A stretch of 64,000 nucleotides of DNA from an uncultured Thermoleophilia bacterium (GCA_963702475.1 CAVPCT010000005.1:448001-512000); one strand, 5' to 3'. Counted from the first letter of the stretch, positions 12,537 through 31,332 are shown. The notes: generated by a model not told the origin, from the sequence alone. Numbers and translations are program-made.

Positions 12537-12568
12537 GTCCCTTCCAGGTGCGATCGACTCACGAACCG

Positions 12569-12765
12569 TCAGTTGCGCAGCCGGTCGCTGAGCGCACGGG
12601 TGAGCTCGTGCAGGAACGACTCCACGTTGGGCCCGCGGCGCGGGCGACCTGCGCCGCGATCTCCGCGAAGACGCCGTGGAGCGTCGAGGCGACCTCGAGG
12701 TCGTCGAGGTCGGTCTGGAGGGGCAGGTGGAGCGCTCGGCGCATTGGAGAGGTCGCGGTGCTCAT
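12569..12765 (-). pseudogene. Small hypothetical gene (~65 aa) apparently split by a frameshift near 12630
   Basis: GAAAGGAG RBS + MSTATSPMRRALHLPLQTDLDDLEVASTLHGVFAEIAAQVAR, continuing naturally in another frame as GPNVESFLHELTRALSDRLRN*. Confidence 0.5.
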
Positions 12766-12946
12766 GAGGTGCTCCTTTCCGCTCACGCCGGCCACGCCCC
12801 CACTCCCCAGGAAGCCGGCTCCCCACCGGAGTTGTTCCCCTAACGGTGGCGGGTCATCTGGCCGGCGAGGCACAGGGCGCGAGGTCCGTTCTGGGAACAA
12901 CTTCACCGGGGGGTGGCGAGTGTTCCCGCCGGAGGGGGCGATCGAG

Positions 12947-13885: not shown

Positions 13886-13943
13886 CCCGCGACCCGCGCG
13901 ACCTCGTGGACGTCCGCGCTGGCGAGTACAGAGACCTCCGTGT

Positions 13944-13975
13944 GGTCAGGGGTTCGACTCCCCTGCGGTCCACCA
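13944..13975 (+). other. Isolated 3' fragment of tRNA-Ala (positions 45-76)
   Basis: GGTC-AGGGG-TTCGACT-CCCCT-GCGGTCC-A-CCA: perfect T-arm, acceptor 3' strand and CCA; no D-arm or anticodon arm upstream. Confidence 0.85.
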
Positions 13976-14099
13976 CCTGGTTCACGCTCAGACACTACGC
14001 TCGTTTCGCTCGTTTCGTCGTATGGCTCCCGGCTCCTCACCGGCGCTTCGCACGGCGCGCCTGACCGCCCGGTCCCGTCCGCGCGGCGCGTCCCGCGGC

Positions 14100-15107
14100 C
14101 TACTCCAGCAGCTTCGCGCGCATCGCCGCGAGCTCGGCGTCCGTGATCGCCCCCGAGAGTCGCAGCTGCGAGAGTCTGTCGAGGGCGGCCTCCTTGGCGG
14201 CGTCCGGCATGCGGCTCGGGGCTCGGGCGTCAGAAGGATCTTCGCCGGAGGTCGTCGCCGCGCCCGTGAACACAGGACCGAGCGAGGCGCGGAACTCGTC
14301 GTCGGTCAGCGATCCCTGGGCGTGCAGCTCGGCCAGGCGCTGGACCTCGTCGGTCACCGGTGACGGCCTGCCCGACGGCGCACGGCCCTCCAGCCGCACG
14401 CCGGCCTCCGCAAGCACGGGAGCCAGAGCTTGGCGGACGTCGTCCGGGGCCACGCCGTCGAGTGCGAAGGCCTCGTAGCCGCGCGGCCTGAGGTGTGTCA
14501 CCAGGAAGGTGCGGTCCTCGGCCGTCCGCGCACCGAGGGTGCGCCCATCGGCCGAGATGGAGGTCGTGAGCCCCGACCTCGCGAGCACCTGCCCGGCGTA
14601 CAGGCTGACGCTCACCACATCGGTGAGCGAGACGGACGGACCGGGGCCTCCACCGCCTCTGACGCCCAATGCGAGGCTGGTCACGAGCATCGACCCGTCG
14701 AGCGAAGGTCCCAGGCTGGGCTGCCCGCCGACGTAGTGGGCGCGGGCGAAACGACACTGGAGCGGACGGGCGGCGGGCCCGAGGGCGCATGCGCCCGGGT
14801 CGGCGCCGTGCGTCGCCGGCACGGCGGCCGGCGGCGCCGCAGGTGAGGTCGCCGCCGCAGCCGGAGCGGCAGCGGTCGGCGCGACCGCAGTGACAGCCGC
14901 GCCGACCGCGCCTCCTTCCCGGTGCGCCAGCGAGCGCACCCACGCGCGGGTGCCGCCGGTGCTCCACAGCAGCGGAGTCACGCGGTCGTACTCGAGCACC
15001 TGCGCGGCGCTGATCGCGCCGAACCCCTGCAGCACGAAGCGGCCCTCGTCGTGCGTGATGGTCCTGCCGGCCCACGCCGTGTCGGCACTGAAGCTCGCGA
15101 CCAGCAC
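14100..15107 (-). CDS. Hypothetical protein with two C-terminal SHOCT domains
   Basis: DEVQRLAELHAQGSLTDDEF and LDRLSQLRLSGAITDAELAAMRAKLL; GAAAGGA RBS. Confidence 0.75.
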   Translation of the reverse strand: MLVASFSADTAWAGRTITHDEGRFVLQGFGAISAAQVLEYDRVTPLLWSTGGTRAWVRSLAHREGGAVGAAVTAVAPTAAAPAAAATSPAAPPAAVPATHGADPGACALGPAARPLQCRFARAHYVGGQPSLGPSLDGSMLVTSLALGVRGGGGPGPSVSLTDVVSVSLYAGQVLARSGLTTSISADGRTLGARTAEDRTFLVTHLRPRGYEAFALDGVAPDDVRQALAPVLAEAGVRLEGRAPSGRPSPVTDEVQRLAELHAQGSLTDDEFRASLGPVFTGAATTSGEDPSDARAPSRMPDAAKEAALDRLSQLRLSGAITDAELAAMRAKLLE

Positions 15108-15301
15108 GTCCCGTCCTTTCCGTCGTCGAGGCGCTGCTGCGCGCCGGGCCGAAGTCTACAGGCGCGGGCTCCCCGCCGGGAGGGCGCGTTCCCTGTCACC
15201 ACCGCGCCGGCCGGCCACCGCACGGCCTCCCCTTGACCGTGGGCCTGCGTGACATACGGTGTCGCCATGCAGCGCCGGGCGACAGACACGGGACGGACCG
15301 G

Positions 15302-17497
15302 ATGACGCGGGCGGAGACGCACGGGATGCGGGCGAGGGGCGACGCGCGCCACCCGCTCGTCTCGCGCGCCGTTCGCGAGGGGCGGCACGCCCTCGACGAA
15401 CGCGAGGCCAAGGCTCTGCTCTCGGCCTACGGCATCCCGACACCGCTGGGCGCCGTGGTCAGTACCGCGGAAGAGGCGGCGCGGACGGTGCGGGCGTTGG
15501 GCAGGCGCTGCGTGCTCAAAGCGCTCGGCCCCGACATCCAGCACAAGAGCGACACGGGCCTGATAGAGACCGACGTGCACGACGCCGCTGCGGCGCGAGC
15601 GGCGTTCCACCGCATCGTCGAGCACGCCGCAGGGCGGGCGGCCGGCGGCGTGCTCGTCGAGGAGTGGGTCCCCCACGAGCGCGAGTTCCTCGTCGGCATG
15701 CGCCGCGACGAGCAGTTCGGGCCGGTGCTGGCGCTCGGCCTCGGCGGCATCTTCACGGAGGCCGTCGCCGACGTCTCGTTCGCGCTGCCGCCCGTGGACG
15801 TCGCGGCGTGCAGAGGCTTGGTCGAGGGGCTGCGGAGCCGGCGGTTGCTCGGTCCTGTGCGCGGCCTGCCTCGCGTCGACCTTGACCGGCTCACCGAGAT
15901 CGTCCAGGCCATCGCGCAGCTCACGGCAGACAACCCGGAGATCCTCGAGATCGACGTGAACCCGCTGCTGGCGGCGGGAGCCGACCTGGTCGCTGCCGAC
16001 GCGCTGGTCATCCTCGCGACGGGCGATGGGCAGGGCGCATCCGACGCCTCCCCACCCCGGCCGACGCCCTGCCTGGCGGCCGTGTTCGAGCCGCGCTCCG
16101 TGGCCGTGGTGGGCGCCTCGGAGGATCCGGCCAAGTGGGGCGGCTCCGTATTGCGCAACCTCCTCGACGGAGGCTACGGCGGCGCCCTGTACCCGGTGAA
16201 CGGCCGCGGCGGGGCGGTGCTCGGGCTGCCGGCCTTCGCCACGCTCGCCGACCTGCCCGGACCGCCCGAGCTGGCCGTGGTCGCGCTCGGCGGCCCCCAG
16301 GCGGCCACCGTCGTGACCGAGTGTGGCCGCCTGGGCATACGCGCCGCCGTGGTCATCGCCGCAGGGTTCGCGGAGACCGGCGACCGGGGGGCGGCGCTCC
16401 AGCGTGACCTGGCCCGGGCCGCCGACGCCGGCGGCGTGACGCTCGTGGGACCCAACTGCATGGGCGTGCTCTGTACGGGCTCCCGCCTGACCGCGGTCGG
16501 GTTCGTCTCGCTGCACCCCGCGTGCGGCGGCCTGAGCGTCGTCTCGCAGTCGGGCAACATCGGTACCCAGCTGCTGATGAGCGCCGAGCGCCGCGGTGTG
16601 GGCATTCAGAAGTTCGTGAGCAGCGGCAACCAGGCGTCGACCGACGCCAACGACTTCCTCGCCTACCTCGCAGACGACCCGGCCACCGACGCGGTCTTCC
16701 TGTATCTGGAGGGCGCCGGGGATGGGCGTCGCTTCTTCGACCTGACGCGCGCGACGACGCCGCGCAAGCCCGTCGTCGTGCTGCACGGCGGGCTGAGCTC
16801 GGCCGGCAGAAGGGCGGCAAGCTCGCACACCGGCGCGCTCGCCGGCTCGTCCGAGGTGTTCGCGGCGGCGGCCCGCCAGGCAGGCGCGATCGTCGTGGAC
16901 GAGCCCGAGGAGGCCCTCGACGTGGCCGCCGTGCTCGGATCGCTGCCGCTCCCGGCCGGGCCGCGCGTCGCCGTGGTCACGCTCGGCGGCGGCTGGGGCG
17001 TGCTGGCGGCCGATGCCGTCGCCGCCGAAGGCCTCGAGCTCGCCGAGCTGCCGGGCGACGTGCTCGCGGCGATCGGCGGGCTCCTGCCGCCTTTCTGGAG
17101 CCACGGGAACCCCATCGACCTCGTGGCCACCGTGGCCGGCGGCGTGCCCGAGCGCGTGATCGAGCTGGTCGCCGGCGCGGACGAGGTGGACGCCGTGCTC
17201 ACGCTCGCGCTGATCGGCAGCCCGAGCAGCGGGCGCGGCGCCGGCAGCGAGGCCGCGGCGCCGGGACCGGCGGGCGGAGCGCTGAACGAGCGCGAGCTGG
17301 CACTGCTGGCGCATATCTCCGCCGTCATGGAGCACACCGGCAAGCCGGTCGTCGGCGTGCCGCTCTCCCCCGTGGAACGGGCGGTCTTCGCCGGAATGGG
17401 CCGCTTCGCGCCGGTGCTCCTGCCGAGCCCGCGCGCCGCCGTGCGCGCGCTCGCGCGGGCGGTCTGGTACGCCGCGCGCAGGCACGGCGCCGGCTGA
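15302..17497 (+). CDS. ADP-forming acyl/acetate-CoA ligase with ATP-grasp domain first (beta-alpha order)
   Basis: LDEREAKALL.AYGIP, HKSDTG, FGPVLALGLGGIFTE, EIDVNPL, then FEPRSVAVVGAS, GPNCMG, SQSGN, ASSHTGALAG; exact start uncertain. Confidence 0.88.
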   Translation: MTRAETHGMRARGDARHPLVSRAVREGRHALDEREAKALLSAYGIPTPLGAVVSTAEEAARTVRALGRRCVLKALGPDIQHKSDTGLIETDVHDAAAARAAFHRIVEHAAGRAAGGVLVEEWVPHEREFLVGMRRDEQFGPVLALGLGGIFTEAVADVSFALPPVDVAACRGLVEGLRSRRLLGPVRGLPRVDLDRLTEIVQAIAQLTADNPEILEIDVNPLLAAGADLVAADALVILATGDGQGASDASPPRPTPCLAAVFEPRSVAVVGASEDPAKWGGSVLRNLLDGGYGGALYPVNGRGGAVLGLPAFATLADLPGPPELAVVALGGPQAATVVTECGRLGIRAAVVIAAGFAETGDRGAALQRDLARAADAGGVTLVGPNCMGVLCTGSRLTAVGFVSLHPACGGLSVVSQSGNIGTQLLMSAERRGVGIQKFVSSGNQASTDANDFLAYLADDPATDAVFLYLEGAGDGRRFFDLTRATTPRKPVVVLHGGLSSAGRRAASSHTGALAGSSEVFAAAARQAGAIVVDEPEEALDVAAVLGSLPLPAGPRVAVVTLGGGWGVLAADAVAAEGLELAELPGDVLAAIGGLLPPFWSHGNPIDLVATVAGGVPERVIELVAGADEVDAVLTLALIGSPSSGRGAGSEAAAPGPAGGALNERELALLAHISAVMEHTGKPVVGVPLSPVERAVFAGMGRFAPVLLPSPRAAVRALARAVWYAARRHGAG

Positions 17498-17630
17498 GGC
17501 GACGGCCGGGCGTCCAGCTCGTCCAGGCCGGCGCTCTTCGGTGCCGCAACGCGTTCTCTTGCGGCCGGGATGAAGAGGCGAGGGGTCTGCACTACCATGG
17601 GGAGGCCTCTTCCTCCGGCAAAGGACCTGT

Positions 17631-18896
17631 GTGAGACGCTGGACACCGTGGAGAGCCCCTTCCGGGACTTCCGTCGCCAGGGCACTCGCGACCGCGTTCG
17701 CGACCGGCGCCGCCGGCCTCGCCGTCCTCGGCGCGCTCAGCGGCTGCGGACACACCGGCCCCGTCGACGACGAGAAGTCGCCGGAGCCCATCCACATCGG
17801 CGCCATCTACGACCTGTCCGGTGCGCAGGCGCCGCTCGACATCCCTTCCCTCGACGGCGCCCGCCTCGCGGTGGACCGCATCAACGCCGCCGGTGGGCTG
17901 CTGGGCCGTCGCGTGGAGCTTCTGGAGCGCGACGGCCAGACCGACGTCAACGTGGTCCGCTACGACGCCCGCAACCTGGCCCGCCTGGGCGTCTCGGCCA
18001 TGATCGGCCTGAGCGACAGCGACCAGGTCCTGGCGGCCGCGCCCATCGCCGCCGCCGCAGGCATCCCCTTCATCACCAGCGGCGCCACGTCTCCCCTGCT
18101 CCCCGAGCAGGTCCCCGACTGGCTGTTCCTCGCCTGCTTCAGCGACAACGAGCAGGCGGCGGCCGGGGCTGAGTTCGCCGTCACCGAGATGGGAGCGCAG
18201 CGCGTCGCCGTGCTGTACGACGAGGACATGGAGTACACCAGGCTCCTGCAGCACTACTTCGTGGAGGCCTTCAACGCGTACGGCGGCAAGGTCGTCTTCA
18301 GCCGGGGATTCAGCACCGGGGAGCTCGACGTCTCGCGACTCATGAAGCCGGCCGTGCAGGACGACGGGGACGGCGACTCACCCCAGCCGGTCGCCGTGCA
18401 CCTCATCTACGTCGCGGCAGGGCCTGAGGACGCCGGCCGCCTGGTACGCAAGCTCCGCGACGCCGGCTTCGGTCAGCCCATCATGGGCGGCGACAGCTTC
18501 GACAACGCCCAGCTCATCAGCGCCGCGGAGCAGTCCGGAGGCGGCGTGTACTTCACCACACACGCCGCCCTCGGCCTGCCCCACAGCTCGCGCCCCATGC
18601 GCAGGTTCTCGGCCAAGTACACGGCGGCCTACGGGCGCTCGCCCGAGAACGCCTTCGCCGCTCTCGGCTACGACACCGTGAACCTCGTCGCCAAGGCCAT
18701 CCGCAAGGCGAAGTCGGCCGACCCGGCAAAGGTCCGCGACGCGCTCCTCGAGATGCGCGCCTTCAACGGCGTCACCGGACCTCTGAGCTACGCCGGCGAC
18801 AGCTTCGTGCCGGTGAAGTCGGTGACGGTGGTGGCGGTGGGGCGTGAGGCCAAGCTCGCCATGCAGCTCACGCCCATCTACGTGCCCGAGCCGTGA
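17631..18896 (+). CDS. ABC transporter substrate-binding lipoprotein (branched-chain amino acid family)
   Basis: Lipobox LSGC; [33 protein letters not shown]. Confidence 0.88.
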
Positions 18897-18985
18897 ACGG
18901 CGGCGGGCGGGCGGCGGAGTCGCCACCCGCCCGCACCAAGCCTGAGGCCGGGGTCTGCCGGGCCCGGGGAGCCGGACCTCGTCGA

Positions 18986-19666
18986 CTAGTTCCTGAACAC
19001 GCCGAGGAAGTAGATGAGCTGCGCGATGGAGGCGAGGGCCGCGGCCACGTAGGTCATCGCGGCGGCCGAGAGCGTCTTGCGCACGCCCACGGCTTCACCG
19101 TCGGTCACGAGCCCCAGCGCCTGGAGCTGCTGCGCCGCCCGGCGCGAGGCGTTGAACTCCACCGGCAGCGTCACGATCTGGAAGAGCACGGCGAAGCCGA
19201 ACACGATGAGCGCCAGCGTGATCAGACCGGTGAACTGGAACACCAGCCCCATGAGCAGCAGGAAGAACCACGCCTGCGAACCGAAGGCGGCCACCGGCCA
19301 CAGGGCCGAACGCGCCTTCATGGGCACGTAGGACTGGGCGTGCTGGATAGCGTGCCCCGTCTCGTGCGCGGCCACGGCGGTGGCGGCCACCGACCGGCCC
19401 GCGTACACCGGCTCGCTGAGGAACACGCCGCGGCGCCGAGGGTCGTAGTGATCGCTCAGGGCACCGCCCTTCGCGGGATGGACCGGTACTTCGTTCAGGC
19501 CGTTGCTGTCGAGGATCCGGCGCGCGACCTGGGCGCCGGTCATCCCGTTCCTGACCGGGACCTGGCTGTTCACGGAGAACGTGTGCTTGAGCCACCCCTG
19601 CACGGCCAGGCCGACGACGAACGGGACGATGAAACACACCAGATAGAGAGTCCAACCACTCATCAT
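18986..19666 (-). CDS. Neutral zinc metallopeptidase (YugP-like)
   Basis: [18 protein letters not shown] (HExxH), [20 protein letters not shown]. Confidence 0.92.
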
Positions 19667-19891
19667 GCAGACACACCTCGCGTCCCTGTAGCCGGTGGCG
19701 CCGCCGGGACGTTGCTGTCACGACGCCGAGCCCTTTATACCCCGTGGCGCGGGAATCGGGCTGAGAGCTTGCTGAGAACGATCCGTGGCCGGTCTCACGG
19801 TCGCGGCCGCGCGAGGCAGGTCGCGCCAACTCCACCCCCACAGGATCGGCGGGGGGTTCCGTGCAGCCGGGAATGCGGTAATGATGACAGC

Positions 19892-20356
19892 GTGACCGAG
19901 CTGCACTTTCCCAGAGACGAGTACTACATGCGCCTGGCGCTGCGCGAGGCGGAGCGCGCCGCGACGCACGGCGACGTGCCGGTGGGCGCGGTCGTCGTGC
20001 TGGACGGCGAGGTCATCGCCGCCGCCGGCAATGAGCGCGAGTTCCGCAACAGCCCGCTCGCGCACGCCGAGATGATCGCCATCGAGCTGGCCGCCAGACA
20101 CATGGGCAGCTGGCGGCTCCTCAACACCGTGCTCTACGTGACCATGGAGCCGTGCCCCATGTGCGCCGGCGCCGTCGTCCAGGCCCGCATCCCGCACCTC
20201 GTGTACGGCGCCCCGGACGAGAAGGCCGGCGCCGCAGGCACGCTCTACAACGTCTGCCAGGACCCCCGCCTGAACCACTGCCTGGAGATCACCAGCGGCG
20301 TGCTGGCCGACGAGTCCATCGCGCTGCTGCGCGAGTTCTTCCACGCGCGCCGCTGA
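19892..20356 (+). CDS. tadA: tRNA adenosine(34) deaminase
   Basis: [37 protein letters not shown]. Confidence 0.93.
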
Positions 20357-20492
20357 GCCCTGTACACGCTGCGCGCCGGCGCGGGTACCTCACGCCGGCG
20401 CAGCGGGCACGGAGAGAGACCGACCGCGGCGCCGGCCGGCGATAGAATCCCGGGGCCGCCTCAGTCCGGCGCCGTCCCGACAAGGAGCACCC

Positions 20493-21836
20493 ATGCACAC
20501 CGACGAGCTGCGCGCCTCCGTGGCCGGTCTCATGCCGCGCCTCCGCGCCGAGCTGGAGACGCTCGTGCGCCTGCCCTCCATCGCCTTTCCCGGCTACCCA
20601 CTCGAGCCCGTCCGCGAGACGGCCGAGGCGGTCGCCGACCTGCTGCGTGCCGCCGGGCTGCCGGAGGTCCGCCTGCTCGACATAGCAGGCGCGCCGGCGG
20701 CGGTGTTCGCGGCGCGCCCGGCGCAGCCCGGCGCGCCCACCGCGCTCCTGTACTCCCACTACGACGTACAGCCGCCCGGCGACGAGTCGCTGTGGACGAG
20801 CCCGCCATTCGCGCCGACGGAACGCGCCGGTCGCCTGTACGGCCGCGGCGCCGCCGACGACAAGTCAGGCATCGTCATGCACGCAGGCGCGCTCGACGCC
20901 CTGGGCCAGGACTGCCCGGTGGGCATCAAGGTGCTCATCGAGGGCTACGAGGAGGTCGACGGCACCGGCATCGAGGCCTTCGTGACCGCCAACCCGGACC
21001 TCCTTGCGGCCGACGTCATCGTCATCGCCGACGTGGGCAACTACAGCATCGGCGTGCCCACCCTCACCACGTCGCTGCGTGGCATGGCCGCCCTCGATGT
21101 GGAGGTCGAGACCCTCGAGGGCGCGGTGCACAGCGGCATGTTCGGAGGCCCCGCGCCGGACGCGCTCATCGCCCTGGCGCGCATGATCGCCACCCTGCAC
21201 ACGCCCGAGGGCGACGTGGCCGTCGAGGGCCTGACGTCGATGCCGCACGCCGGCGCGGCGTACCACCCCGACGCGTTCCGCGAGGACGCCGGGCTGCTGC
21301 CCGGGGTGGACCTCATCGGCAGCGGAAGCATCGCGGAGCACCTCTACGCGCGCCCGTCCATCAACGTGATCGGCTTGGACGCGCCGCCCACGGACGGCGC
21401 CCGCAACGCGCTCGTGCACCGCGCCAAGGCGCGCGTGAGCGTGCGCCTGGCGCCGGGCGAGGTCCCGGCCGAGGCACAGGCCATCGTCGCCGGCCACCTG
21501 CGCGGCGTCACGCCCTGGAACGCGCGCGTGACGATCACCCCCGGCACGCTCGGCGAGGGCTTCCTGGCGCGCACCGACGGCCCGGCGTACGCCTCCGCGG
21601 TCCGCGCCCTCGAGGCCGCCTTCGGCACCGAGGTCGTGCACTACGGCGAAGGCGGCTCCATCCCCCTGGTGGCCGCCTTCCACAAGGCCCTGCCCGACGC
21701 CGAAGTCATCCTCTGGGGCCCGGAGGAGCCGCAGTGCAGGATCCACGGCCCGAACGAGAGCGTGGACCTCGGCGAGCTGGAGCGCTGCGTGCTCGCCGAG
21801 GCGCTCTTTCTCGACGGGATGTGCGCAGGCGCCTGA
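20493..21836 (+). CDS. M20 family dipeptidase
   Basis: LLYSHYDVQP, GRGAADDKSG, EG.EE, HSG.FGG, GGSIP, HGPNES; AAGGAG RBS. Confidence 0.92.
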   Translation: MHTDELRASVAGLMPRLRAELETLVRLPSIAFPGYPLEPVRETAEAVADLLRAAGLPEVRLLDIAGAPAAVFAARPAQPGAPTALLYSHYDVQPPGDESLWTSPPFAPTERAGRLYGRGAADDKSGIVMHAGALDALGQDCPVGIKVLIEGYEEVDGTGIEAFVTANPDLLAADVIVIADVGNYSIGVPTLTTSLRGMAALDVEVETLEGAVHSGMFGGPAPDALIALARMIATLHTPEGDVAVEGLTSMPHAGAAYHPDAFREDAGLLPGVDLIGSGSIAEHLYARPSINVIGLDAPPTDGARNALVHRAKARVSVRLAPGEVPAEAQAIVAGHLRGVTPWNARVTITPGTLGEGFLARTDGPAYASAVRALEAAFGTEVVHYGEGGSIPLVAAFHKALPDAEVILWGPEEPQCRIHGPNESVDLGELERCVLAEALFLDGMCAGA

Positions 21837-22004
21837 GCCGTAGCAGGCGGGCGGGCTGCCGCGAGAGGTCGCCGGGCGGCGCCGCGCGCCCTTCCGCCGG
21901 CCTCGGCGCGCCCGCCGCCCGCACGGGCGCGCCGGTTCCCCGTCCTCGCCCGGCTGACGTATACTGGGCGTCCGCTCGCGGGGCTACGCCCCGCCGCACC
22001 TCGC

Positions 22005-22098
22005 GGAGAGGTGTCCGAGTTGGCTTAAGGAGCGCGACTGGAAATCGCGTGGGCGGGGGTAACCTGCCTCGTGGGTTCGAATCCCACCCTCTCCGCCA
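22005..22098 (+). tRNA. tRNA-Ser(GGA)
   Basis: GGAGAGG/CCTCTCC acceptor stem, CGCGA-CTGGAAA-TCGCG anticodon arm, long variable arm, CCA. Confidence 0.96.
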
Positions 22099-22171
22099 CT
22101 GTCGCTGCCCCCCTGCTCTCCTGCTCCCCGCTCCCCGCTCGGCGGCCGCAACGCCACAGGACGCAGCCGCT

Positions 22172-22289
22172 CTTCACGACTTCCGCACGACTTCCGCAGA
22201 AGCGTGACGCGCTCTGCCCGTTCGGCGGGCTGGAGACTCTGCATTCGCTGCTCACCGGCGAAGGCTTCGTCAAGCGCACCGCCGAGAGC
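22172..22289 (+). pseudogene. Remnant of a paralogue of the 23309..24583 gene (operator motif fused to an internal 28-codon fragment)
   Basis: 22206..22289 DALCPFGGLETLHSLLTGEGFVKRTAES vs 23528..23611 DFLCPFGGLETLYSLLTGDGFLRHTAAS; 22172..22190 matches 23186..23204 at 17/19 nt. Confidence 0.75.
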
Positions 22290-22382
22290 CAGACCCGCGC
22301 CCAGCCGCCCCGGCAGCACTCTCGCACTCGGAGTGCGCGCCCGGTATTCTGACGCATCACTGCCCCCGACCCGGAGGACCGC

Positions 22383-23135
22383 ATGCGCCTGCGACGCTGG
22401 CAAGTGACGATCGCCGCGACACTCATCCTGCTCGCGACCGCCGTCTACGTGATCCGCTGGCTGTTGTTCCCCAGCGACTCGCTGCACAACGAGATGGTGC
22501 GCTACCTCGTGGACGACGTCGCCTTCCTCTTCATCCAGGTGCTGCTCGTCTCCATGCTGCTCGACGGCCTCATGCAGCGCCGCGCCCGCGACCAGATGCT
22601 CAAGAAGCTGAACATGCTCATCGGGGCCTTCTTCACCGAGTGCGGCACCGACTTGCTGGGGCGCATCGCCCGGCTGGACGCGAAGCTGGCGGAGGTCCGT
22701 GGCGACCTCATCCCCACCTTGAAGTGGGACGACAAACACTACGCACGGGCCAAGCAGGCGTTCCGCGACCACGAGCCGGCGATCCACCTGACGCTGGACG
22801 ACCTCGTCGCCCTGCGCGAGCGCCTGGACGCGGAAAAGACCTACATGATCGGCCTGCTCGGCAACCAGGCGTTGCTCGAGCACGAGACCTTCACCGATCT
22901 GCTCTGGGCCGTCACTCACGTCACCGAAGAGCTGCACGCGCGCGGCGACTTCGAGCACCTGCCGGCGACCGACAGGGCGCACCTGGCCGGCGACCTGCGC
23001 CGCGCCTATGCCTTGCTCGGCGTCGAATGGCTGGACTACCTGCACCACCTGCGCGACCAGTACCCCTTCCTCTTCTCGCTGGCGGTGCGCACCAACCCGC
23101 TGGACCCGGACGCGTCCGTCACCGTGACTGAGTGA
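22383..23135 (+). CDS. Hypothetical membrane protein (2 N-terminal TM helices + helical domain)
   Basis: GGAGG RBS; D.AFL.IQVLLV, KLNMLIGAFF.E.G, LLEHETFTDLLWAV.H..EEL, YPFLFSLAVRTNP. Confidence 0.82.
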   Translation: MRLRRWQVTIAATLILLATAVYVIRWLLFPSDSLHNEMVRYLVDDVAFLFIQVLLVSMLLDGLMQRRARDQMLKKLNMLIGAFFTECGTDLLGRIARLDAKLAEVRGDLIPTLKWDDKHYARAKQAFRDHEPAIHLTLDDLVALRERLDAEKTYMIGLLGNQALLEHETFTDLLWAVTHVTEELHARGDFEHLPATDRAHLAGDLRRAYALLGVEWLDYLHHLRDQYPFLFSLAVRTNPLDPDASVTVTE

Positions 23136-23185
23136 GAGGACGCTGAGCGCCCGCGGGCGGAAGGCTCCCTCCCCCCTCTCTCTCC

Positions 23186-23240
23186 CTTCACAACTTCCGC
23201 ACAAGTGGTTCGAAGGTCGTTCACAAGTCGTCGCTACACT
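23186..23240 (+). promoter_or_regulatory. Putative regulator-binding direct repeats plus -10 box
   Basis: CACAA at 23189, 23200 and 23222 (11 and 22 nt spacing); TACACT at 23235. Confidence 0.5.
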
Positions 23241-23308
23241 CCGCCGAGGCCAGAGCGATGCGGGCCACTGCACGGCCCACGGCAGACGACACGCGAGGAA
23301 GACAGACC

Positions 23309-24583
23309 ATGACGGACGAGCAGACGCGGAAGACGGCTGAGCGCACCGACGCGGCGGCAGGCACCGGCAAGGCGGCCGGCACCGGCAAGGCGGAGCGGGC
23401 CGACCGGCAGGCGCAGCAGCGGGCGCGCTGGATACGGTGGGCCGTCCTCGGCGCCGTCCTCGTCGGCATGACGGCGATAGTGACGGCCCACCAGACCAGC
23501 CGCGGCTGGGGTCGCTGGGCCGGCGTCGACTTTCTGTGCCCGTTCGGCGGCCTCGAGACGCTGTACTCGCTGCTCACCGGCGACGGCTTCCTCCGGCACA
23601 CCGCCGCCAGCTCGGTGATCCTGCTGGTCGGGATGCTGGCGATGGCATTCGTCTACCGCCGCTCGTTCTGCGGGACCATCTGCCCCCTCGGCACACTGCA
23701 GGGCCTCTTCGGGGCGCTCGGCGGCAAGCTGTTCAGGCGACGCCTTCTCGTGCCGCGCGGCATCGACCGCGTCGCCAGGTACCTCAAGTACGCGATCCTC
23801 GTCTGGTTCGCCGTGTGGACCTGGCAGGCGGCGGAGCTGGTGCTCAGACCCTACGACCCGTGGGTCGCCTGGGCCCACCTCACGTCTGGCGACCTGTTCA
23901 CGACCTATCTCATCGGCTTCGTGATCCTCGTCCTGTCACTGGCCGGCTCACTGGCGTACGACCGCTTCTTCTGCAAGTACCTCTGCCCCGCCGGCGCGCT
24001 GCTGGCCCTCTTCTCCCGCGCGAGCCTCTTCACCATCCGCCGCGACCCTGTGACCTGCATCGACTGCGGGCGCTGCGACACGGCCTGCATGATGAACGTG
24101 AACGTGGCGACCGCCGACGCTGTGACGAGCGCGGAGTGCATCTCGTGCAACGAGTGTGTGAACGCCTGCCCGGTGAAGGACGCGCTCATGGTGGAGGCGC
24201 CCACGAGCAAGCGCACACCGGTCCTCACGTCCACCGCCGTCGTGGTCGCGGTACTCGTCGCCATCGTGGGCTTCACGACGATCGCCGGCGACTTCCAGTG
24301 GCGGCAGCAGCCGGGCGAAGCCCGCGCCATGGAGCGGGGCTCGGGCGGCGGCGCAGGGCAGGGCGGCGGCCAGGGGATGGGCGGCGAGCAGGACTCGGTC
24401 GTCCGGGGCTCAACCAGCCTGAACGACATCGCCGGGGCCACCGGCATCCCCGCGGAGGAGCTTGCGGCCGCGTTCGGGGTGCCGGCATCCGACCTGGACG
24501 TGCCGCTCCGCGAGCTCAGGGACCTGTACGGGTTCACGCCCCACGACGTGCGCGACTGGGTGGACGAGCGACTGCAGCAGTGA
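23309..24583 (+). CDS. Membrane 4Fe-4S polyferredoxin (NapH/YccM/NosR-like)
   Basis: CPFGG, FCGTICPLG, FFCKYLCPAG, CIDCGRCDTAC, CISCNECVNACP; TM helices. Confidence 0.88.
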   Translation: MTDEQTRKTAERTDAAAGTGKAAGTGKAERADRQAQQRARWIRWAVLGAVLVGMTAIVTAHQTSRGWGRWAGVDFLCPFGGLETLYSLLTGDGFLRHTAASSVILLVGMLAMAFVYRRSFCGTICPLGTLQGLFGALGGKLFRRRLLVPRGIDRVARYLKYAILVWFAVWTWQAAELVLRPYDPWVAWAHLTSGDLFTTYLIGFVILVLSLAGSLAYDRFFCKYLCPAGALLALFSRASLFTIRRDPVTCIDCGRCDTACMMNVNVATADAVTSAECISCNECVNACPVKDALMVEAPTSKRTPVLTSTAVVVAVLVAIVGFTTIAGDFQWRQQPGEARAMERGSGGGAGQGGGQGMGGEQDSVVRGSTSLNDIAGATGIPAEELAAAFGVPASDLDVPLRELRDLYGFTPHDVRDWVDERLQQ

Positions 24584-24756
24584 GACCGGCGACCCGCGTC
24601 GCGTGCAGGCGCCGGCGCCCCACGGCCGCCTTCCACCCCGTGTCCTGCGGGTGAGTCTGCCTCCGGACGGGTAGTGAGGCACCGACGGCCGCGGCCGGGT
24701 CGCGTCCCGGTCGACCCGGTGGGGTCGCGTGCCGCTCGACCGCAGCGAGGTGCCGC

Positions 24757-26907
24757 ATGGCGAACCGCCTGATCGACGAGTCCAGCCCCTATCTGCGCCA
24801 GCACGCCGGGAACCCGGTCGACTGGTACCCCTGGGGCGACGAGGCGTTCGAGAAGGCCCGTCGCGAGGACAAGCCGGTGTTCCTCAGCGTCGGCTACTCC
24901 GCCTGCCACTGGTGTCACGTGATGGAGCGCGAGAGCTTCGAGGACGAGGCGACCGCGGCGCTGCTCTCGCGCCACTTCGTCGCCGTCAAGGTGGACCGCG
25001 AGGAGCGACCGGACGTCGACGCGATCTACATGAAGGCTGTGCAGCTGATCACCGGCCGGGGCGGCTGGCCGATGAGCGTGTTCCTCACCCCGGAGGGCGT
25101 GCCCTTCTACGGTGGGACGTACTTCCCCAACAGGCCTCGCGGCGGGATGGCCTCGTTCACGCAGGTGCTGGAGCGCGTCGCAGCGATCTGGGAGCAGCGA
25201 CGGGACGAGGTCGACAGGAACGGCGAGACGCTGCGGCAGCTGCTGACCCGGGACGAACTGGGCGCAGTACGGCTGACGACGGCGAGGCAGGAGGCGGGAG
25301 GCGGCATCCCGCTGAGGCGCGTGACTCTCGACGAAGCCGTCGCGCGCCTCGCCGAGGACTTCGACCCCGCGCACGGCGGGTTCGGCGGCGCGCCCAAGTT
25401 CCCGCAACCCACCGCGCTCGAGTTCCTCTTGCGGCGCGCCGTCGCGACGGGCGACACAGAAGCGCTCGGCATGGTCACCAAGACGCTCGACGAGATGGCC
25501 GCGGGCGGCATCTACGACCACGTCGGCGGGGGGTTCCACCGGTACTCGGTCGACGACATCTGGCTGGTGCCGCACTTCGAGAAGATGCTCTACGACAACG
25601 CTCAACTGGCGCGGCTCTACCTGCACGCGTGGCAGGTGACCGGCGAGCCGGCGTACCGCCGCGTGGTCGAGGGCACCCTGGATTTCGTGCTGCGCGAGCT
25701 GACCGATCCGGCCGGCGGCTTCTATTCGGCACTGGACGCCGACTCCGAGGGCGAGGAGGGCCGGTTCTACGTGTGGACGCCGGCCCAGATCGAGACGGCG
25801 CTGGCGGGCACGCCGGACGCGCCGCCGGCCCCGATCCCGGTCAACCCGGAGGGTGACGATCTGGACGGGGCGCGTCGACCCGCGGTCAACCCGGAGGGTG
25901 ACGATCTGCGGCTGTTCTTTGACGCGTACGGCGTCGAAGCCGGGGGCAACTTCGAGGGTACGACCATCCTTCACGGCGCCCTCGACGCGCCGCACCTCGC
26001 GGCGCTGCGCGACATCGACGAGGACGAGGTGGAGCGCCGGCTCGCCGCGCTGCGCGCACGGCTTCTCGCGGCCCGCGAGCGGCGTGTCCGGCCGGGCCTG
26101 GACGACAAGGTGCTGGCCTCCTGGAACGGCCTCATGCTCGCCGCCTTCGCCGAGGCTGCGCGCGTTCTCGACTGCGAGACCTACCTGGCGGCCGCGCGCG
26201 CCAACGCCGAGTTCCTGCTCGGCCAGATGCGCGCGCCCGACGGTCGCATGCTCCGCACGTGGCACGCCGGCAAGGCCAAGCTGAACGGCTACCTCGAGGA
26301 CCAGTGTGCCGTCGCAGACGGCCTCCTGCAGCTCTACCAGACCGACTTCGACCCACGCTGGTTCCAGGCCGCGCACGAGGTCGCCGACCTGGCCCTCGCG
26401 CACTTCGCCGCTCCGGACGGCGGGTTCTACGACACCAGCGACGACCACGAGCGGCTGGTGGCCCGGCCCCGTGACCTGCAGGACGGCGTTCAGCCGTGTG
26501 GCGGATCGCTCGCGGCCCTCGTCCTGCTCCAGCTCGGCTCGTACGCCGGCGAAGGCCGCTTCGCCGACGCCGCCGAGCAGGCTCTGGCGCCCCTGCAGCC
26601 GCTGATGGCCGCGTCGCCGCTCGGCTTCGGTACCTGGCTGAGCGCCCTGGACCTGACGCTGGCGCCGCCGACGGAAGTGGCCATCGTCGGTGCCCCGGCG
26701 GACGGACTGCTGGCCGTGATCCGCAGGACCTGGCGGCCGAACGTGCTGGTCGCGGCGGGATGCGGCGCCGACGCGGCCGCCGCCGTCCCCCTTTTGCGGG
26801 GCCGCACGGAGGTGGACGGTCGTCCTGCCGCCTACGTCTGCACCGGCTCCGTCTGCGGGCAGCCGGTCACCGCGGCCGCAGACCTCGGCGCACTGCTCGA
26901 CCGGTAG
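24757..26907 (+). CDS. Thioredoxin domain / alpha-barrel protein (YyaL/SPATA20 family)
   Basis: [61 protein letters not shown]. Confidence 0.94.
25838..25908 (+). repeat. 26-bp direct repeat (2 copies, 45-nt period), in frame inside the YyaL gene
   Basis: cggtcaacccggagggtgacgatctg at 25838..25863 and 25883..25908. Confidence 0.9.
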
Positions 26908-27079
26908 CGAAGCGGAGGGCCGAGCCACCGGCGGAACACGGTGGCGGGCGGGCTCCCAGCGGCCGGCCCGGACGAGCCGAGCGGCCGGCGGCCCCCACCG
27001 GAGGCCCCGGCAACCCCCACGGTCGTCGTGCTAGACTACGCGTCCGCGGCCTGCGCCTTGCGCGTACCCGTCGCCTCGC

Positions 27080-27174
<95 letters not shown>

Positions 27175-27508
27175 GCAGGTAGTTTGTGCACTTCTCCCGC
27201 CCCTCAGCGCGCTCTCACAAGGGCTACCTGCGCGGGAATGGGGCCGGTTTGGGGCCATTTCGTTTCGCTCACTGAGCCCACGCTCTTGCGCGCGCGACCC
27301 GTCGAGACGAGATCAGCGCAGCGACCTTCTCACAGCATCAGCCGCCCACCGGGCCACCAGAGCACGCCAGGGGCGCCGCTCGTGACGAGCTTCGCGGGCC
27401 AGTTGTCGAGCGTGCCCAGGTCGATTCAGAGGGGTGGCGAGGAACGCCCCAGAACGCACGCATGCGGCCGCCGCGAGGTTCCCGCCAAGGAGAGGCCGCC
27501 GCTGCCGC

Positions 27509-27898
27509 TCAGGCGGGCGCTGCGGAGCCGCCACCCAGGCCGGCCGCCCTCTTGCGCGCCGCGGCGGCTTTGGCCTTGGCCATCGCCTTCCCCAGGCTAT
27601 CTTGGAGGTTGCCTGCGGCCGCTTCCTGCATGCTCGGAATCACGTGCGAGTAGGTGTCCATGGTGATGCCGATCGAGGAGTGCCCGAGGCGCTCTTGCAC
27701 GACCTTGGGGTGTTCGCCGTTGGCGAGGAGCAGGGTTGCGTGCGTGTGCCGCAGGTTGTGGAACTTCACCGGCCTGCCGACCTCGTGCGTCTTCTTGCGC
27801 CACTCGGCCGCGAGGCTGCCGGGATGCCAGGGCCGCCCATCTTCGCGGGCAAGGACAAGGTCTCCCTGGAGTTGGAGCCGCCCCGCTTCGTCTTCCAC
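27509..27898 (-). pseudogene. Tyrosine recombinase/integrase, C-terminal remnant
   Basis: KFHNLRHTHATLLL.NGEHPKVVQERLGHSSIGITMDTYSHV (HxxR, H, Y); N-terminal domains absent. Confidence 0.88.
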
Positions 27899-28035
27899 CC
27901 TGCTGGCGGACGATCTGCCCCGTCGCTGCCCGGCGAGGCCGTGATCCGTCGGGCAACGCCAAACGCTTGACTGCTCGTGAGCACGGCGATACGGAGAGCT
28001 CGCGGCAGAAGCGGGCGACAGGTGGAGGAGGGGCC

Positions 28036-29172
28036 ATGGCCATGCTGGCGGCGTTGGGAGAGAAGCTCTACGACTTGGACGAGCTCGACGAAGTCGTGCT
28101 GAGCAAGAAGGAGGCGATCCAGGAGTACATCGATGACCCGAAGGGGCAGCCCAGGTTCAGCGTGTCCGAGGGGGACGTGCAGATCGGGCATGTGGAGCTG
28201 GCCAAGGCAGTAGAGGCCAAGTCGAGCGCAGTCCCTTACCAGGGCATCGGATTCGGCAAACCGCTGACAATCACCGTCGAGTCCGTCTACGTCGGCGACT
28301 ACCCTGACGCGGTCCGGTTCACGCCGTGGGCCGAACGCGGCGATGTGCTCGTGACGTCGGCATGGAAGCCGTTCGAGAGGTTCCAGGCGGCCGCGCGGGC
28401 CGTGCACCTCCTTCAAGAGAACGCCGCGCGTCGCAGCTATCCCAAGGTCACGGCGACCTCGCAGGGCACGCGGCTCGCCTTCTACTCGCCGGCGGTCACC
28501 GAGATGAGCATCTTCTTCTCCGTCGAGTTGACCGTCGACCGGGACTTCTCCAGCGAGGTGGGTGACGCGCTGGCCAAGGCGATGACCGGCGCCGGCGCGC
28601 TGCCGGTGTTCGCTCCGGTGGCACCCTACCTTGTCGCCGGGGCAGTCCTGGTCCCTATCGGCATGAATGTGGCCAAGATGCTCGCCCGTCCGAGGCCCTT
28701 CTTCGCGGAGGACGTCGAGGTGAACTTCACGCGTCCTGGCCTCGATGTAGCACAGACGGGCGCCTACGTGCTGTACCCCGGCGGGGACAAGAAGCCGTTC
28801 GCCGGGTACGACAAGCTCCGGGGCTGCGTGCTTCGCGACAGCAACGGAACACCGTACGGCGGAGAGTTGCCGTACGTGGTGATCAGCCTCGACGGGACCC
28901 CGCGGGAGAAGCTCGAGGGGTGGGCAGCGACGGCGGCGTCGGCGCTCCTCCTTGAGAGGTTCTTTGCTCAGGACGCACTCATGGCCGAGGCGCTCGATGT
29001 CGTGACCAGTGGCCTGGTGTACGCCAACGACATGACGTACCGGCAGAAGGCCGTTGAGGCGCTGGAGAAGAGCAAGACCCTGAAGGGCCCGAAGAAGAAG
29101 GAACAGGAAGAGCTCTACAAGGCGTACGTCAAGAACATCCAGACCAAGGAGCTCCGGGACACCGTTGCGTAG
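28036..29172 (+). CDS. Hypothetical protein (378 aa), island cargo
   Basis: GGAGGAGG RBS before the ATG at 28036; long protein-like ORF; family not recognised. Confidence 0.8.
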   Translation: MAMLAALGEKLYDLDELDEVVLSKKEAIQEYIDDPKGQPRFSVSEGDVQIGHVELAKAVEAKSSAVPYQGIGFGKPLTITVESVYVGDYPDAVRFTPWAERGDVLVTSAWKPFERFQAAARAVHLLQENAARRSYPKVTATSQGTRLAFYSPAVTEMSIFFSVELTVDRDFSSEVGDALAKAMTGAGALPVFAPVAPYLVAGAVLVPIGMNVAKMLARPRPFFAEDVEVNFTRPGLDVAQTGAYVLYPGGDKKPFAGYDKLRGCVLRDSNGTPYGGELPYVVISLDGTPREKLEGWAATAASALLLERFFAQDALMAEALDVVTSGLVYANDMTYRQKAVEALEKSKTLKGPKKKEQEELYKAYVKNIQTKELRDTVA

Positions 29173-29572
29173 GGAGGCGGAGCAGTCTCGCTGGCCCATT
29201 GGGAGCGGGCTGTGACCGTGCCCTCCACTGCTCGGGCGCAAACTGCAGGATTTGTCACCAGACTACCGGGGGGAAGCACTCTACGATCGTTGAGTCTTCG
29301 CCGCGGTCACGCGCATGAGGGAGATGTTGAAGTTGTCATATCTGCGCGGTCATCCGCGCGTCGTCGTTCAACCCTATGTCCGCGAACGAAGCCGGCTGCA
29401 GAGTGAGGAGGCGTGGATTGTCGCCTGCGCGCACTTGAATGACCTCCTCACCGGCGCAGACCCAGACGACGGCGAGTAGGAGCTCCACCTACGGCACGCG
29501 CGGTGTCTCGTAGCGCTCGTGGCGGGACGAACTCAACGGCACCGCTCGCGCGACGACGACCGGTCCCTCGGA

Positions 29573-30718
29573 TCAACTGGCCAGCAGCTCGGCAATTCTG
29601 CCGGGGTCGGCGGGCTCGAAGGCATCGCGCGCAACCCATAGTCGCGCGGCTTGAGGGACGCGGAGGTAGACGGCACGGGCTACGCTCAGCGTGCGCTCTG
29701 GGTGCGTATCCCACTTGAGCGCAGTGGCGGCGGCCTGCATCGCTTGCCCGGTCTCCGTGCCGCCATCGAAACGTGCTAGCCAAGCCTCGAGGTGGCGAGT
29801 CGCAGCCAGGAAGTCGCGTTTGCTGGCGTTGCAGCCGGGGTGCGCCGCTACGAGGTTCTCAAGGCCGTTGTCTGGCCAGCGGGCCCAGGGCACGAAGTGG
29901 TCCACATCGGCGGCGGCGCGCAACTTGCTGCCGCAGTAGAAGCAGCGTCCCGACTGCATGTCTCGCAGCACCGGTCGTACCGCTGCCAACGACACGCGCT
30001 CCACACCGAAGAGGAATTCGGGCAACCCAGCGTCACTGACCATCTGTCGATTGAAGCGCAGGATGCGGTTCGTCCACTTGATCTCGATGAGCGGTCGCAT
30101 GAGGCCGCTGAGCTGGACGAGGTACTCGGCGGCGCGACCGACGAAGTGAATGTGGGCGTCGAACCCCGGCGCGCGCACCTCCGAACGGGTGATGCCCTTC
30201 GCCCAGCCGATCTGGTAGATGAAGGGGTCGTGGACGCCGCCCATCACCTGCAGGCGCGGCAACGGCATCTCGATGAGCTTCCACTCGACCGTGTCGAGGA
30301 GGCGGGCGAACTGCAGCGGGGCTCCTGCCCGAGCCTCCGGCAGCGGCGATGAAGGGTCGGGCGCGTGCCTCTCGCGGAAGGCCCGGATGGCCGTGACGAT
30401 CTCGGCCCGGCCCGATGAGTTCTGGCGCAAGAGGGCGGCCCCGGCGAGTCCGACGTAGAGATTGGTCTGTGGCCAGTAGAGCTCGGTCACGCGGCGCGCG
30501 AGGTCGGCTGTGGCGAGCGACTGCGGAGGGGCACCCGTGGCGGTAGTGCCCTCTAGGCGGGAATCGAGGATCGCGAGCAGCAGCGCGAACTTGTACGTGG
30601 CCGTGAAGGTGCCCTCATCGAGCAGCGCGATGAGGCGTTCGGCGAAGCCGACAGCGCCGCGCTCAGGCTCAGCCGCAGGCATATTCGCAGACTCGCCATG
30701 AATGAGCAGCTCCCCCAC
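29573..30718 (-). CDS. HNH endonuclease domain protein
   Basis: GRCFYCG...DVDHFVPW......NLVAAHPGCNASKRD; N-terminal ATYKFALL motif; exact start uncertain. Confidence 0.88.
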   Translation of the reverse strand: MGELLIHGESANMPAAEPERGAVGFAERLIALLDEGTFTATYKFALLLAILDSRLEGTTATGAPPQSLATADLARRVTELYWPQTNLYVGLAGAALLRQNSSGRAEIVTAIRAFRERHAPDPSSPLPEARAGAPLQFARLLDTVEWKLIEMPLPRLQVMGGVHDPFIYQIGWAKGITRSEVRAPGFDAHIHFVGRAAEYLVQLSGLMRPLIEIKWTNRILRFNRQMVSDAGLPEFLFGVERVSLAAVRPVLRDMQSGRCFYCGSKLRAAADVDHFVPWARWPDNGLENLVAAHPGCNASKRDFLAATRHLEAWLARFDGGTETGQAMQAAATALKWDTHPERTLSVARAVYLRVPQAARLWVARDAFEPADPGRIAELLAS

Positions 30719-30721
30719 CGG

Positions 30722-31096
30722 TCAGTAGGTTCCCTTGCCTGGGAAGAGGTGGCGCATGCCGCCGCGCGGGTTCTCCATGTCGCCTCTCCTGCGTGGGATG
30801 AGGTGGAAGTGGCAGTGGAAGATGGTCTGCCCTGCCGCTTCGCCAACGTTCACTCCGATGTTGAAGCCCTCCACAGCGGCGTCGTCTGCCATGATCAGCT
30901 CGCGCGCGCGACGAAGTAGATCGTCGCAGGCGACGAGCTCATCTGCGGTGAGCGAGAAGTAGTCGCGCACGTGCCGGCGAGGGATGACCAGGGCGTGCAG
31001 GCGGGTGACCGGATAGGAGTCCCAGACCGCATAGGCGAGGTCGCCATCCAGGAACACCCGCTCGCCATCGGGCCGGCAGAAGACGCACTCACTCAT
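30722..31096 (-). CDS. HIT family nucleotide hydrolase
   Basis: CVFC, YPVT.LHALVIPRRH, GFNIGVNVGEAAGQTIFHCHFHLIPRR.GD. Confidence 0.93.
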   Translation of the reverse strand: MSECVFCRPDGERVFLDGDLAYAVWDSYPVTRLHALVIPRRHVRDYFSLTADELVACDDLLRRARELIMADDAAVEGFNIGVNVGEAAGQTIFHCHFHLIPRRRGDMENPRGGMRHLFPGKGTY

Positions 31097-31155
31097 CCGG
31101 ATGCACCTTCACTGCTCGACGGTAAGCATTCATCACTCGTGAAGCCTTCGAAGAC

Positions 31156-31208
31156 CCCCTGACCTCCGCCGTGCAAAGGCGGCGCTCTCCCAACTGAGCT
31201 AGCGGCCC
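31156..31208 (-). pseudogene. 5' part of tRNA-Ala(TGC) (positions 1-53); T-loop and 3' acceptor strand missing
   Basis: GGGCCGC-TA-GCTC-AGTTGGGA-GAGC-G-CCGCC-TTTGCAC-GGCGG-AGGTC-AGGGG, then diverges; TATACT box just upstream. Confidence 0.88.
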
Positions 31209-31332
31209 ACGAGGGGGACGAGTATACCCGGAGAAGCCGAGGAAGCCGGACCGGCTTGTGAATCCACGCGTGTCTCGGTTGCGGCATGGTTGCAGCACTC
31301 CACGGACTCGCTCGGCAGCGTGGCGTACCCGT

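Follow-up and report, generated by a model that had tools for sequence, protein, structure and literature searches.

The question raised by this locus is whether two complementary pieces of a tRNA-Ala(TGC) gene, which lie 17 kb apart on opposite strands, are the two ends of a single rearrangement or remnants of separate events. The window, i.e., the whole stretch of 64,000 nucleotides (nt) analyzed here, comes from an uncultured Thermoleophilia bacterium (GCA_963702475.1, CAVPCT010000005.1:448001-512000) and corresponds to G000:C5:448001-512000 in our numbering, where contig C5 measures 1.08 Mb. The metagenome-assembled genome (MAG) G000 comprises 4.31 Mb in 9 contigs, with 93.8% completeness and 6.5% contamination. 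The original prediction offered three interpretations of the pieces, namely an inversion scar or invertible tRNA switch, two independent attachment-site (att) relics of tRNA-Ala-targeting elements, or a tRNA assembled in trans. Our results favor the second: the pieces are probably independent relics of tyrosine-integrase-type recombination at tRNA-Ala(TGC) and not the ends of a 17-kb inversion, in view of an intact copy elsewhere in the assembly, the synteny with relatives, a tRNA-Ser island that encloses the 5' piece and a family of similar units in related genomes. The physical description of the pieces was thus upheld together with the reading as independent relics, whereas an inversion or switch was not borne out, since an intact copy exists, the relatives are collinear and each fragment has a separate explanation, and assembly in trans was rejected. 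The features on which the question turns are the following.

31156..31208, minus strand: 5' piece of tRNA-Ala(TGC), positions 1-53, 53/53 identical to the intact gene at G000 C1:18785-18860
31209..31295, minus strand: upstream module of the 5' unit with TATACT and the CTGCAACC repeat, read from the sequence
13944..13992, plus strand: 3' block of tRNA-Ala, positions 45-76 and 17 nt of trailer, 49/49 identical to C1:18829-18877

The 5' piece breaks off at the boundary of T-stem and T-loop (53|54), and past the break the minus strand continues with unrelated sequence (GTCTTCGAAGG...). The 3' piece proper (13944-13975, plus strand) covers positions 45-76, has CCA at its end and agrees with the intact gene at 32/32 tRNA positions. 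The TATACT box predicted ahead of the 5' piece is present at 31226->31221 (minus strand), 13 nt upstream of tRNA position 1; this -10-like element is part of TATACT-N-CCCCCTCGTG, a conserved string, and further upstream, at 31295->31277 (about -90 to -70), comes the repeat CTGCAACC-N3-CCGCAACC. Over 140 nt, the upstream module shares 79% identity with the region upstream of the intact C1 gene, and a sigma-70 consensus scan of the module revealed no full promoter. Joining the pieces in silico at the shared 9-mer GGTCAGGGG gave a 76-nt tRNA with 0 mismatches (76/76) to the intact C1 tRNA-Ala(TGC), in which the acceptor stem with G3:T70 (G3:U70 in the tRNA) and A73 can be read straight from the sequence. 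Neither piece was called by ARAGORN or by Rfam at gathering score, as expected of fragments; the other tRNAs called in the window were six by ARAGORN and five by Rfam. The 23-mer of positions 54-76 occurred a single time in the window, with a match of any kind in 0/100 shuffles, and the 9-mer GGTCAGGGG was found in the window at chance level (2 occurrences vs. 1.22 expected, with at least two in 35/100 shuffles).

Among the 51 tRNAs called by ARAGORN in G000, tRNA-Ala is represented by one TGC, one GGC and one CGC gene. The TGC gene, for which a search of the whole genome had been proposed, was found intact at C1:18785-18860 and is identical to the joined pieces. Since window positions 13976-13992 exactly match the first 17 bases of its trailer, the 3' piece is really a 49-bp block. 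Moreover, C1 carries a second complementary pair, with positions 1-32 at 7962-7993 and positions 32-76 at 28264-28308, which indicates that such pairs arise from common break-point hot spots. Tyrosine integrases that target tRNA genes reportedly exchange strands at places in the anticodon loop and the T-loop, the sublocation classes credited to Williams in 2002. With integrase break points at fixed tRNA sublocations, pieces would look complementary without sharing a history. Three further truncated units were detected in G000, at C1:7962 (1-32), C3:690 (1-28) and C3:6346 (1-41). The members of the C1 pair each lie about 10 kb from the intact gene, one on either side and in direct orientation, and the 3' fragment at 28264-28308 differs in its T-arm. 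An open reading frame (ORF) with an IS481-like helix-turn-helix stands directly behind the intact C1 gene. A doubtful tRNA-Pyl at C3:641046 is among the calls that ARAGORN made genome-wide.

The orientation of the interval between the two pieces was determined by comparing window positions 7000-21900 and 21900-37500 with 25 genomes of the same genus, using as left marker the M20 peptidase, tRNA-Ser(GCT) and tRNA-Arg(ACG) and as orientation marker between the pieces the following block.

17560..27030, no strand assigned: conserved housekeeping block (Pfam) with a binding protein, a Zn peptidase, an M20 peptidase, tRNA-Ser(GGA) and others

The left marker and this core block lay on one contig in 19 of the 25 genomes (G001-G004, G006-G010, G013-G015, G017, G031-G035, G037), and all 19 shared the order and orientation of the window, so that the inverted arrangement sought in relatives was seen in 0 of the informative genomes. 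The other six (G005, G011, G012, G016, G018, G036) were uninformative, the markers being on separate contigs or unlisted. Contig G008:C108 is collinear via tRNA-Ser(CGA) up to the GH123-like gene that follows the island of the window. Because the core block lies inside the interval that would have been flipped and is collinear in 19/19, the present orientation is ancestral and the state with a 'restored tRNA' would be the derived one. Sequencing runs were uninformative either way (the best contained 0.19 of the sampled words), and none of the short Logan contigs from those runs bridged 13943/13944 or 31155/31156. Loose contig ends at the tRNA pieces resemble intact tRNA-Ala from other organisms.

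The 5' piece lies within an island at tRNA-Ser(CGA), the features of which are listed here.

27080..27171, plus strand: tRNA-Ser(CGA), attL end of the 6.2-kb island (ARAGORN, Rfam, direct repeat)
33370..33434, plus strand: 65-nt direct repeat of the 3' part of tRNA-Ser(CGA), attR end (94% over the 70-nt repeat family)
27509..27898, minus strand: C-terminal remnant of a tyrosine integrase (PF00589 positions 89-168 only, at 27641-27877), adjoining tRNA-Ser
27736-29172, plus strand: ORF of 478 amino acids (aa), coding-like with a third-position GC content (GC3) of 0.81, no Pfam or NCBIfam match
29573..30718, minus strand: HNH protein of 381 aa with a C-terminal HNH nuclease domain (Pfam)
30722..31096, minus strand: HIT-family gene (Pfam HIT, 1.7e-17), starting 59 nt downstream of the 5' piece
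31505..33097, minus strand: family-5 solute-binding protein gene (Pfam), in the tRNA-Ser island and upstream of the tRNA-Ala unit

The tRNA-Ser att direct repeats, previously raised as a caveat to inversion, were confirmed with the repeat at 33370..33434, and so was the remark that the window holds no intact recombinase: its sole tyrosine-recombinase signal is the C-terminal remnant, which gave weak Xer/integron-integrase matches. As these att repeats surround the 5' piece, the latter is cargo of a classical tRNA-Ser island, which between 27172 and 33434 contains the integrase remnant, the 478-aa ORF, the HNH and HIT genes, the tRNA-Ala unit and the solute-binding protein. The island is lacking in G008, G015, G031 and G001, where tRNA-Ser(GGA) and tRNA-Ser(CGA) are adjacent, and in G008 GH123 is reached within 1.7 kb of the adjacent tRNA-Ser genes; G032 has another island at this site, 14.8 kb long, which terminates in the same attR and arm. 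AAGGTG is found 7 nt ahead of the ATG of the HIT gene, and it is plausible that the tRNA promoter of the unit reads through into HIT-HNH, which may be a defense or mobility module. The two genes recur as a module in G008 (L054:2671-4163), with 40% and 75% aa identity and no tRNA piece there. The family-5 solute-binding protein has paralogues on contig C8, and the 478-aa ORF and the 3' remnant of the integrase overlap on opposite strands. An assignment of HIT-HNH as a defense system was tried and not retained, the PADLOC matches being weak and at domain level (PtuB-like HNH 1.4e-07, ThsC-like HIT 2.1e-09).

The 3' block adjoins a different variable region, termed island X.

9357..13943, no strand assigned: variable island X, from tRNA-Arg(ACG) to the 3' block (Pfam), absent here in relatives
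9701-11662, minus strand: beta-helix protein of island X (Pfam)
11997-12536, minus strand: PEMT-family methyltransferase of island X (Pfam)
12521-13885, plus strand: ORF of island X left without assignment by the Pfam scan

On its right side island X extends exactly to the 49-bp block, most likely an ordinary att block as carried by classical tRNA-integrating elements (from the T-arm through the 3' end and trailer), here stranded beside a variable island. Behind the block come GGCTCC repeats that resemble, judged by eye, those behind the C1 gene and tRNA-Arg; a tRNA-Arg att repeat was not found at the right end of island X. Behind tRNA-Arg, 18/19 informative relatives lack island X along with SHOCT and the ADP-forming acyl-CoA synthetase, and in G032 SHOCT and the synthetase stand behind tRNA-Arg with other DNA between. 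Homologs of the PEMT gene with 75% identity are located beside tRNA-Ala in G014 and within the array of G017, a kinship that points to material once resident at a tRNA-Ala locus. A 92-nt tRNA-His called by ARAGORN at 16862-16953 (plus strand), inside the acyl-CoA synthetase ORF (15233-17497), is missing from the Rfam results and probably a false positive.

When relatives were first compared, dozens of matches to the first 70-140 bases of the query were obtained, grouped on single contigs. A census of 13 fetched stretches oriented on the tRNA, carried out with BLAST and an ungapped extension rule of our own, counted 68 units of promoter plus 5' tRNA-Ala, made up of 57 truncated units, 10 intact genes and, in addition, a second full-length tRNA-Ala(CGC). 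The truncated units stand upstream of the intact gene on the same strand, about 22 of them in G006, 8 in G009 and fewer elsewhere, and form arrays in G002, G003, G006, G009, G011, G013, G015, G017 and G018, all uncultured Thermoleophilia. The end points of these units form clusters, at positions 28-33 in 22 units and at positions 41-44 in 15, and 3' fragments start at positions 32, 34, 45 and 48; the break points thus coincide with the borders of the anticodon loop and the T-loop. A TANNNT box is present at the expected distance in 46 of the 68 units, and the string TATACTTGTCCCCCTCGTG is nearly invariant. Searched with at most one mismatch, the junction pattern of promoter and tRNA occurred in 41/54 genomes of the genus, with at least two copies in 24 of them and a maximum of 18, and genomes of 1.7-2.5 Mb had one copy; the reversed control gave 0. 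Solitary units also occur elsewhere, for instance directly behind tRNA-Glu(CTC) in G006, and the unit of the window is likewise solitary, with no intact tRNA-Ala beside it.

In 16 truncated units position 41-42 is followed by a variable spacer of 17-22 nt and then by a conserved arm of the form ...TCAAGACGCAAGAGACGAAGCGACG... / (C)CCCTCAAGACGCAAGAGACGAAGCGACG...GGT, after which comes CTGCAACC-N4-CTGCAACC. The double CTGCAACC motif also lies at -90 to -70 of many units, including the intact C1 gene and the unit of the window. By pattern it occurs eight times in G000: four occurrences belong to tRNA-Ala units and one lies behind tRNA-Glu(CTC), and the site at C5:52912 looks like a chance match. 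A degenerate version of the arm pattern was found at 18 places in 185,579 species genomes, 17 of them in records of uncultured Thermoleophilia or Actinomycetes. At three loci (L037, L042, L048) only the anticodon stem-loop or loop precedes the arm, with unrelated DNA to the left. Rfam searches of three array loci (E <= 0.1) gave no match for the conserved arm and nothing beyond tRNA, one c-di-GMP-II-GAG riboswitch and mraW below threshold. The riboswitch (L013:9120-9208, minus strand, G006 array; 62.7 bits against a gathering score of 40) is preceded at a distance of about 80 nt by a truncated unit, and riboswitch-like sequence also follows units in G009, in G011 and at G000 C3:4852; similar sequence behind units in several arrays indicates that a riboswitch-led cargo segment recurs. 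At G000 C3:856729 (L031:8729) the double CTGCAACC motif is followed by five tandem ACATTCTGC(A)C, which looks like an array of arm-type sites, and a PF00589 scan revealed no integrase nearby.

Pfam analysis of 132 ORFs of the arrays showed a mixture of transporters, hydrolases, GYD, SnoaL, glyoxalase, GNAT and similar families, and integrase is absent from the 25 commonest Pfam families among them. The cargo genes point either way (14 plus and 13 minus in G006), and the same cargo was found at differing array positions, once inverted, between genomes; comparison of the newest cassettes of G006 and G018 was uninformative. A possible link to an integrase comes from G056, where a 10-kb element between direct copies of the 3' part of tRNA-Glu(CTC) encodes an intact tyrosine integrase of 384 aa (Phage_integrase 4.3e-26 plus SAM-like domain). 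Each of these copies begins just ahead of the anticodon loop and is then followed by CTGCAACC three times, and the anticodon stem CCGCC/GGCGG is common to tRNA-Glu(CTC) and tRNA-Ala(TGC). Furthermore, the tRNA-proximal end of the G003 array holds a frameshifted integrase, a 128-aa fragment of which shows 48% identity with the G056 enzyme and 72% with an integrase beside a tRNA-Val in G042. All genomes are metagenome-assembled, and a frameshift may reflect an error of sequencing.

The arrays suggest reverse-orientation, 5'-replacing integration, where both mechanism and direction are read from their anatomy. A unit, laid out as CTGCAACC repeats, about 45 nt, a -10 box and tRNA-Ala from position 1 to a variable end, would resemble a P-O-P' site of a lambda-type system, with an upstream arm of CTGCAACC, the promoter and the tRNA 5' half, the anticodon stem-loop as putative core and a downstream arm again with CTGCAACC repeats. 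Following this, incoming DNA, the most likely origin of the units, would bring an att site with a promoter and tRNA 5' part and recombine with the resident gene, so that each insertion would renew the front of the gene and push the older promoter and 5' part outward, joined to the downstream arm of the newcomer. Repeated insertion would yield a co-oriented stack with the intact gene at its end. Units that end at 31-32 or 53 and lack the arm might stem from exchange with non-homologous partners, in which the junction would be fixed at the first cleavage site; in the same manner, the 53|54 break of the window might be the cut site of a T-loop-class integrase, joined to unrelated DNA (the HIT-HNH module). 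Taken together, we tentatively propose, as a possibility that we do not regard as established, that the genus possesses an integron-like capture platform on the 5' side of tRNA-Ala(TGC). A tyrosine integrase acting in trans might read the CTGCAACC arms and insert short, mostly integrase-less cargo at the anticodon loop, where an att site of about 250 bp would bring a fresh promoter and 5' half and leave the old ones, building arrays of at least 20 stubs, some of which, such as that of the window, may drive genes like HIT-HNH.

Several observations weigh against these interpretations. An end at 53 is rare, only 2/57 truncated units passing position 45 (the window at 53 and G003 at 55), and the overlap of 9 nt with the only block of the genome that starts at 45 therefore remains a mild coincidence. 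The unit of the window has no conserved downstream arm. The spacer past position 42 folds better than shuffles (z < -1.5) in just 7/17 sequences, which leaves a functional hairpin unproven, and the arm pattern gave 0 matches in IMG/VR viral contigs. PF00589 had no match in the arrays of G000, G006, G009, G017 and G018, an attL partner of the 3' block is missing from the window and island X has no integrase by Pfam. Neither an integration or excision event nor a free attP or empty site was seen, and location of C1 and C5 in the same cell is assumed only, G000 being a MAG with the contamination given above.

Inversion by recombination between the inverted 9-mers, which would flip about 17.2 kb and restore or split the tRNA, has the correct topology, as flipping 13953-31155 would rebuild the gene on the minus strand, and it has a precedent in the archaeal pTN3 integrase, which drives inversion between inverted tRNA copies (PMC5495485). 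It is nevertheless highly improbable in view of the orientation shared by 19/19 informative relatives (25 examined), the intact tRNA-Ala(TGC) elsewhere in the assembly, the truncated recombinase of the window (remnant at 27641-27877) and repeats of just 9 bp at chance frequency; in addition, a flip with one end inside the tRNA-Ser island would have made the att direct repeats of that island inverted ones. Alternatively, one integration that hit a second tRNA-Ala gene without restoring it might have left the pieces as its attL and attR, with crossover in GGTCAGGGG, after which rearrangement or transfer would have moved the two ends to two islands in opposite orientation. The exact 9-nt overlap, the full identity of both tRNA parts (53/53 and 32/32) and the fact that a 5' end point rare in the family meets the only 3' block of the genome starting at 45 speak for such an event. 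On balance we consider it unlikely, because the core genes between the pieces are in ancestral orientation, tRNA-Ser att repeats enclose the 5' piece, the 9-mer alone is at chance level and the analogous pair on C1 shows that common break-point hot spots yield such pairs; moreover, ORF454 to the left of the 3' piece has no homolog near HIT-HNH in any fetched locus, which leaves the reciprocal junction unsupported.

A chimeric join of the assembly at 13943/13944 or 31155/31156 could be suspected in a MAG with estimated contamination and no reads across the junctions. Yet both sides of the junctions lie within a 1.08-Mb contig with the large-scale order of the relatives, and truncated units and 3' blocks of the same kind recur in many independent assemblies, so that an artefact is very unlikely. 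As to a split tRNA assembled in trans from two transcripts in the manner of archaeal split tRNA genes, the promoter-like -10 box of the 5' piece would be compatible with it, but the pieces overlap by 9 nt and do not abut, no promoter-like site was found ahead of the 3' piece and an intact gene is present in the assembly. Furthermore, the 60-nt flanks are not complementary: their longest exact complement is 6 nt, equaled in 103/300 shuffles, and the duplex energy is -30.6 vs. a shuffle mean of -32.7. The probability left for trans assembly is negligible, and the reading as independent relics of integrase-type recombination is retained.

Two further observations in the window concern other subjects. 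A direct repeat of 78 nt with 83% identity (22212-22289 and 23534-23611) ties the region just upstream of a 250-aa ORF (22383-23135) to the gene of a 4Fe-4S protein (23258-24583), which suggests partial duplication of one gene. The bacterial large signal recognition particle (SRP) RNA was detected at 60753-61018 (plus strand, 197.7 bits) in this Thermoleophilia (actinobacterial) genome.

The apparently flippable split tRNA can be explained by ordinary integrase break-point hot spots, with an intact copy in the assembly, and it carries a warning for annotation, namely that complementary tRNA fragments may lack a common history. The noteworthy part is the arrays of promoter-bearing 5' fragments with conserved arms across a little-studied genus of uncultured soil actinobacteria; a partial literature search, confined to main texts, found no account of arrays of promoter-bearing 5' tRNA fragments in Actinomycetota. 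Should the 5'-replacing model hold true, they would represent an unusually rich case of rare reverse-orientation tRNA integration and a route for the build-up of accessory genes without resident integrases, and would supply each genome with dozens of strong orphan promoters.

Comparison with known systems shows partial agreement with each of them. As in classical tRNA islands, a 3' block (T-arm to CCA plus trailer) lies at an island edge, the tRNA-Ser(CGA) island has a 65-nt repeat and an integrase remnant beside the tRNA, and breaks fall at the anticodon loop and T-loop; unlike in these islands, the 3' block lacks an intact tRNA-Ala partner in the window (the partner being on C1), lies behind tRNA-Arg and borders an island without integrase. 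Integrons are ordered arrays of short variable cargo between repeated recombination sites. The arrays share with them the ordered variable cargo, the repeated site and the occurrence of the same cargo at different positions between genomes, whereas no IntI-type integrase stands beside an array, an attC-like folded site is not demonstrated and cargo lies in both orientations. Archaeal split or disrupted tRNA genes likewise consist of two pieces and are reportedly tied to integrated elements (PMC3293823); the present pieces differ from them in that they overlap, have no complementary guide sequences and coexist with an intact gene. Recombination at the 5'-distal part of tRNA genes is described as 'considerably less frequent' than at the 3' part (PMC6563490), and the minimal site of the pTN3 integrase, which can invert DNA between inverted tRNA copies, is tRNA-Leu 2-44 (PMC5495485). 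Similar to 5'-distal integration, the units keep the tRNA 5' part, often to 41-42, and lie upstream of the intact gene, whereas arrays of up to about 22 units, each with a promoter, conserved arms, the mostly missing nearby integrase and the bacterial host (Thermoleophilia) set them apart. Finally, the tycheposons of Prochlorococcus form tRNA-seeded additive islands with scattered partial tRNAs and few intact elements (bioRxiv 10.1101/2020.12.28.424599). They belong to another phylum, the units described here are 5' parts with promoters and no hallmark genes turned up, no search having been aimed at them; nevertheless, the two systems have in common the tRNA seed, the scattered partial tRNAs, the accessory cargo and intact elements that are rarer than remnants.

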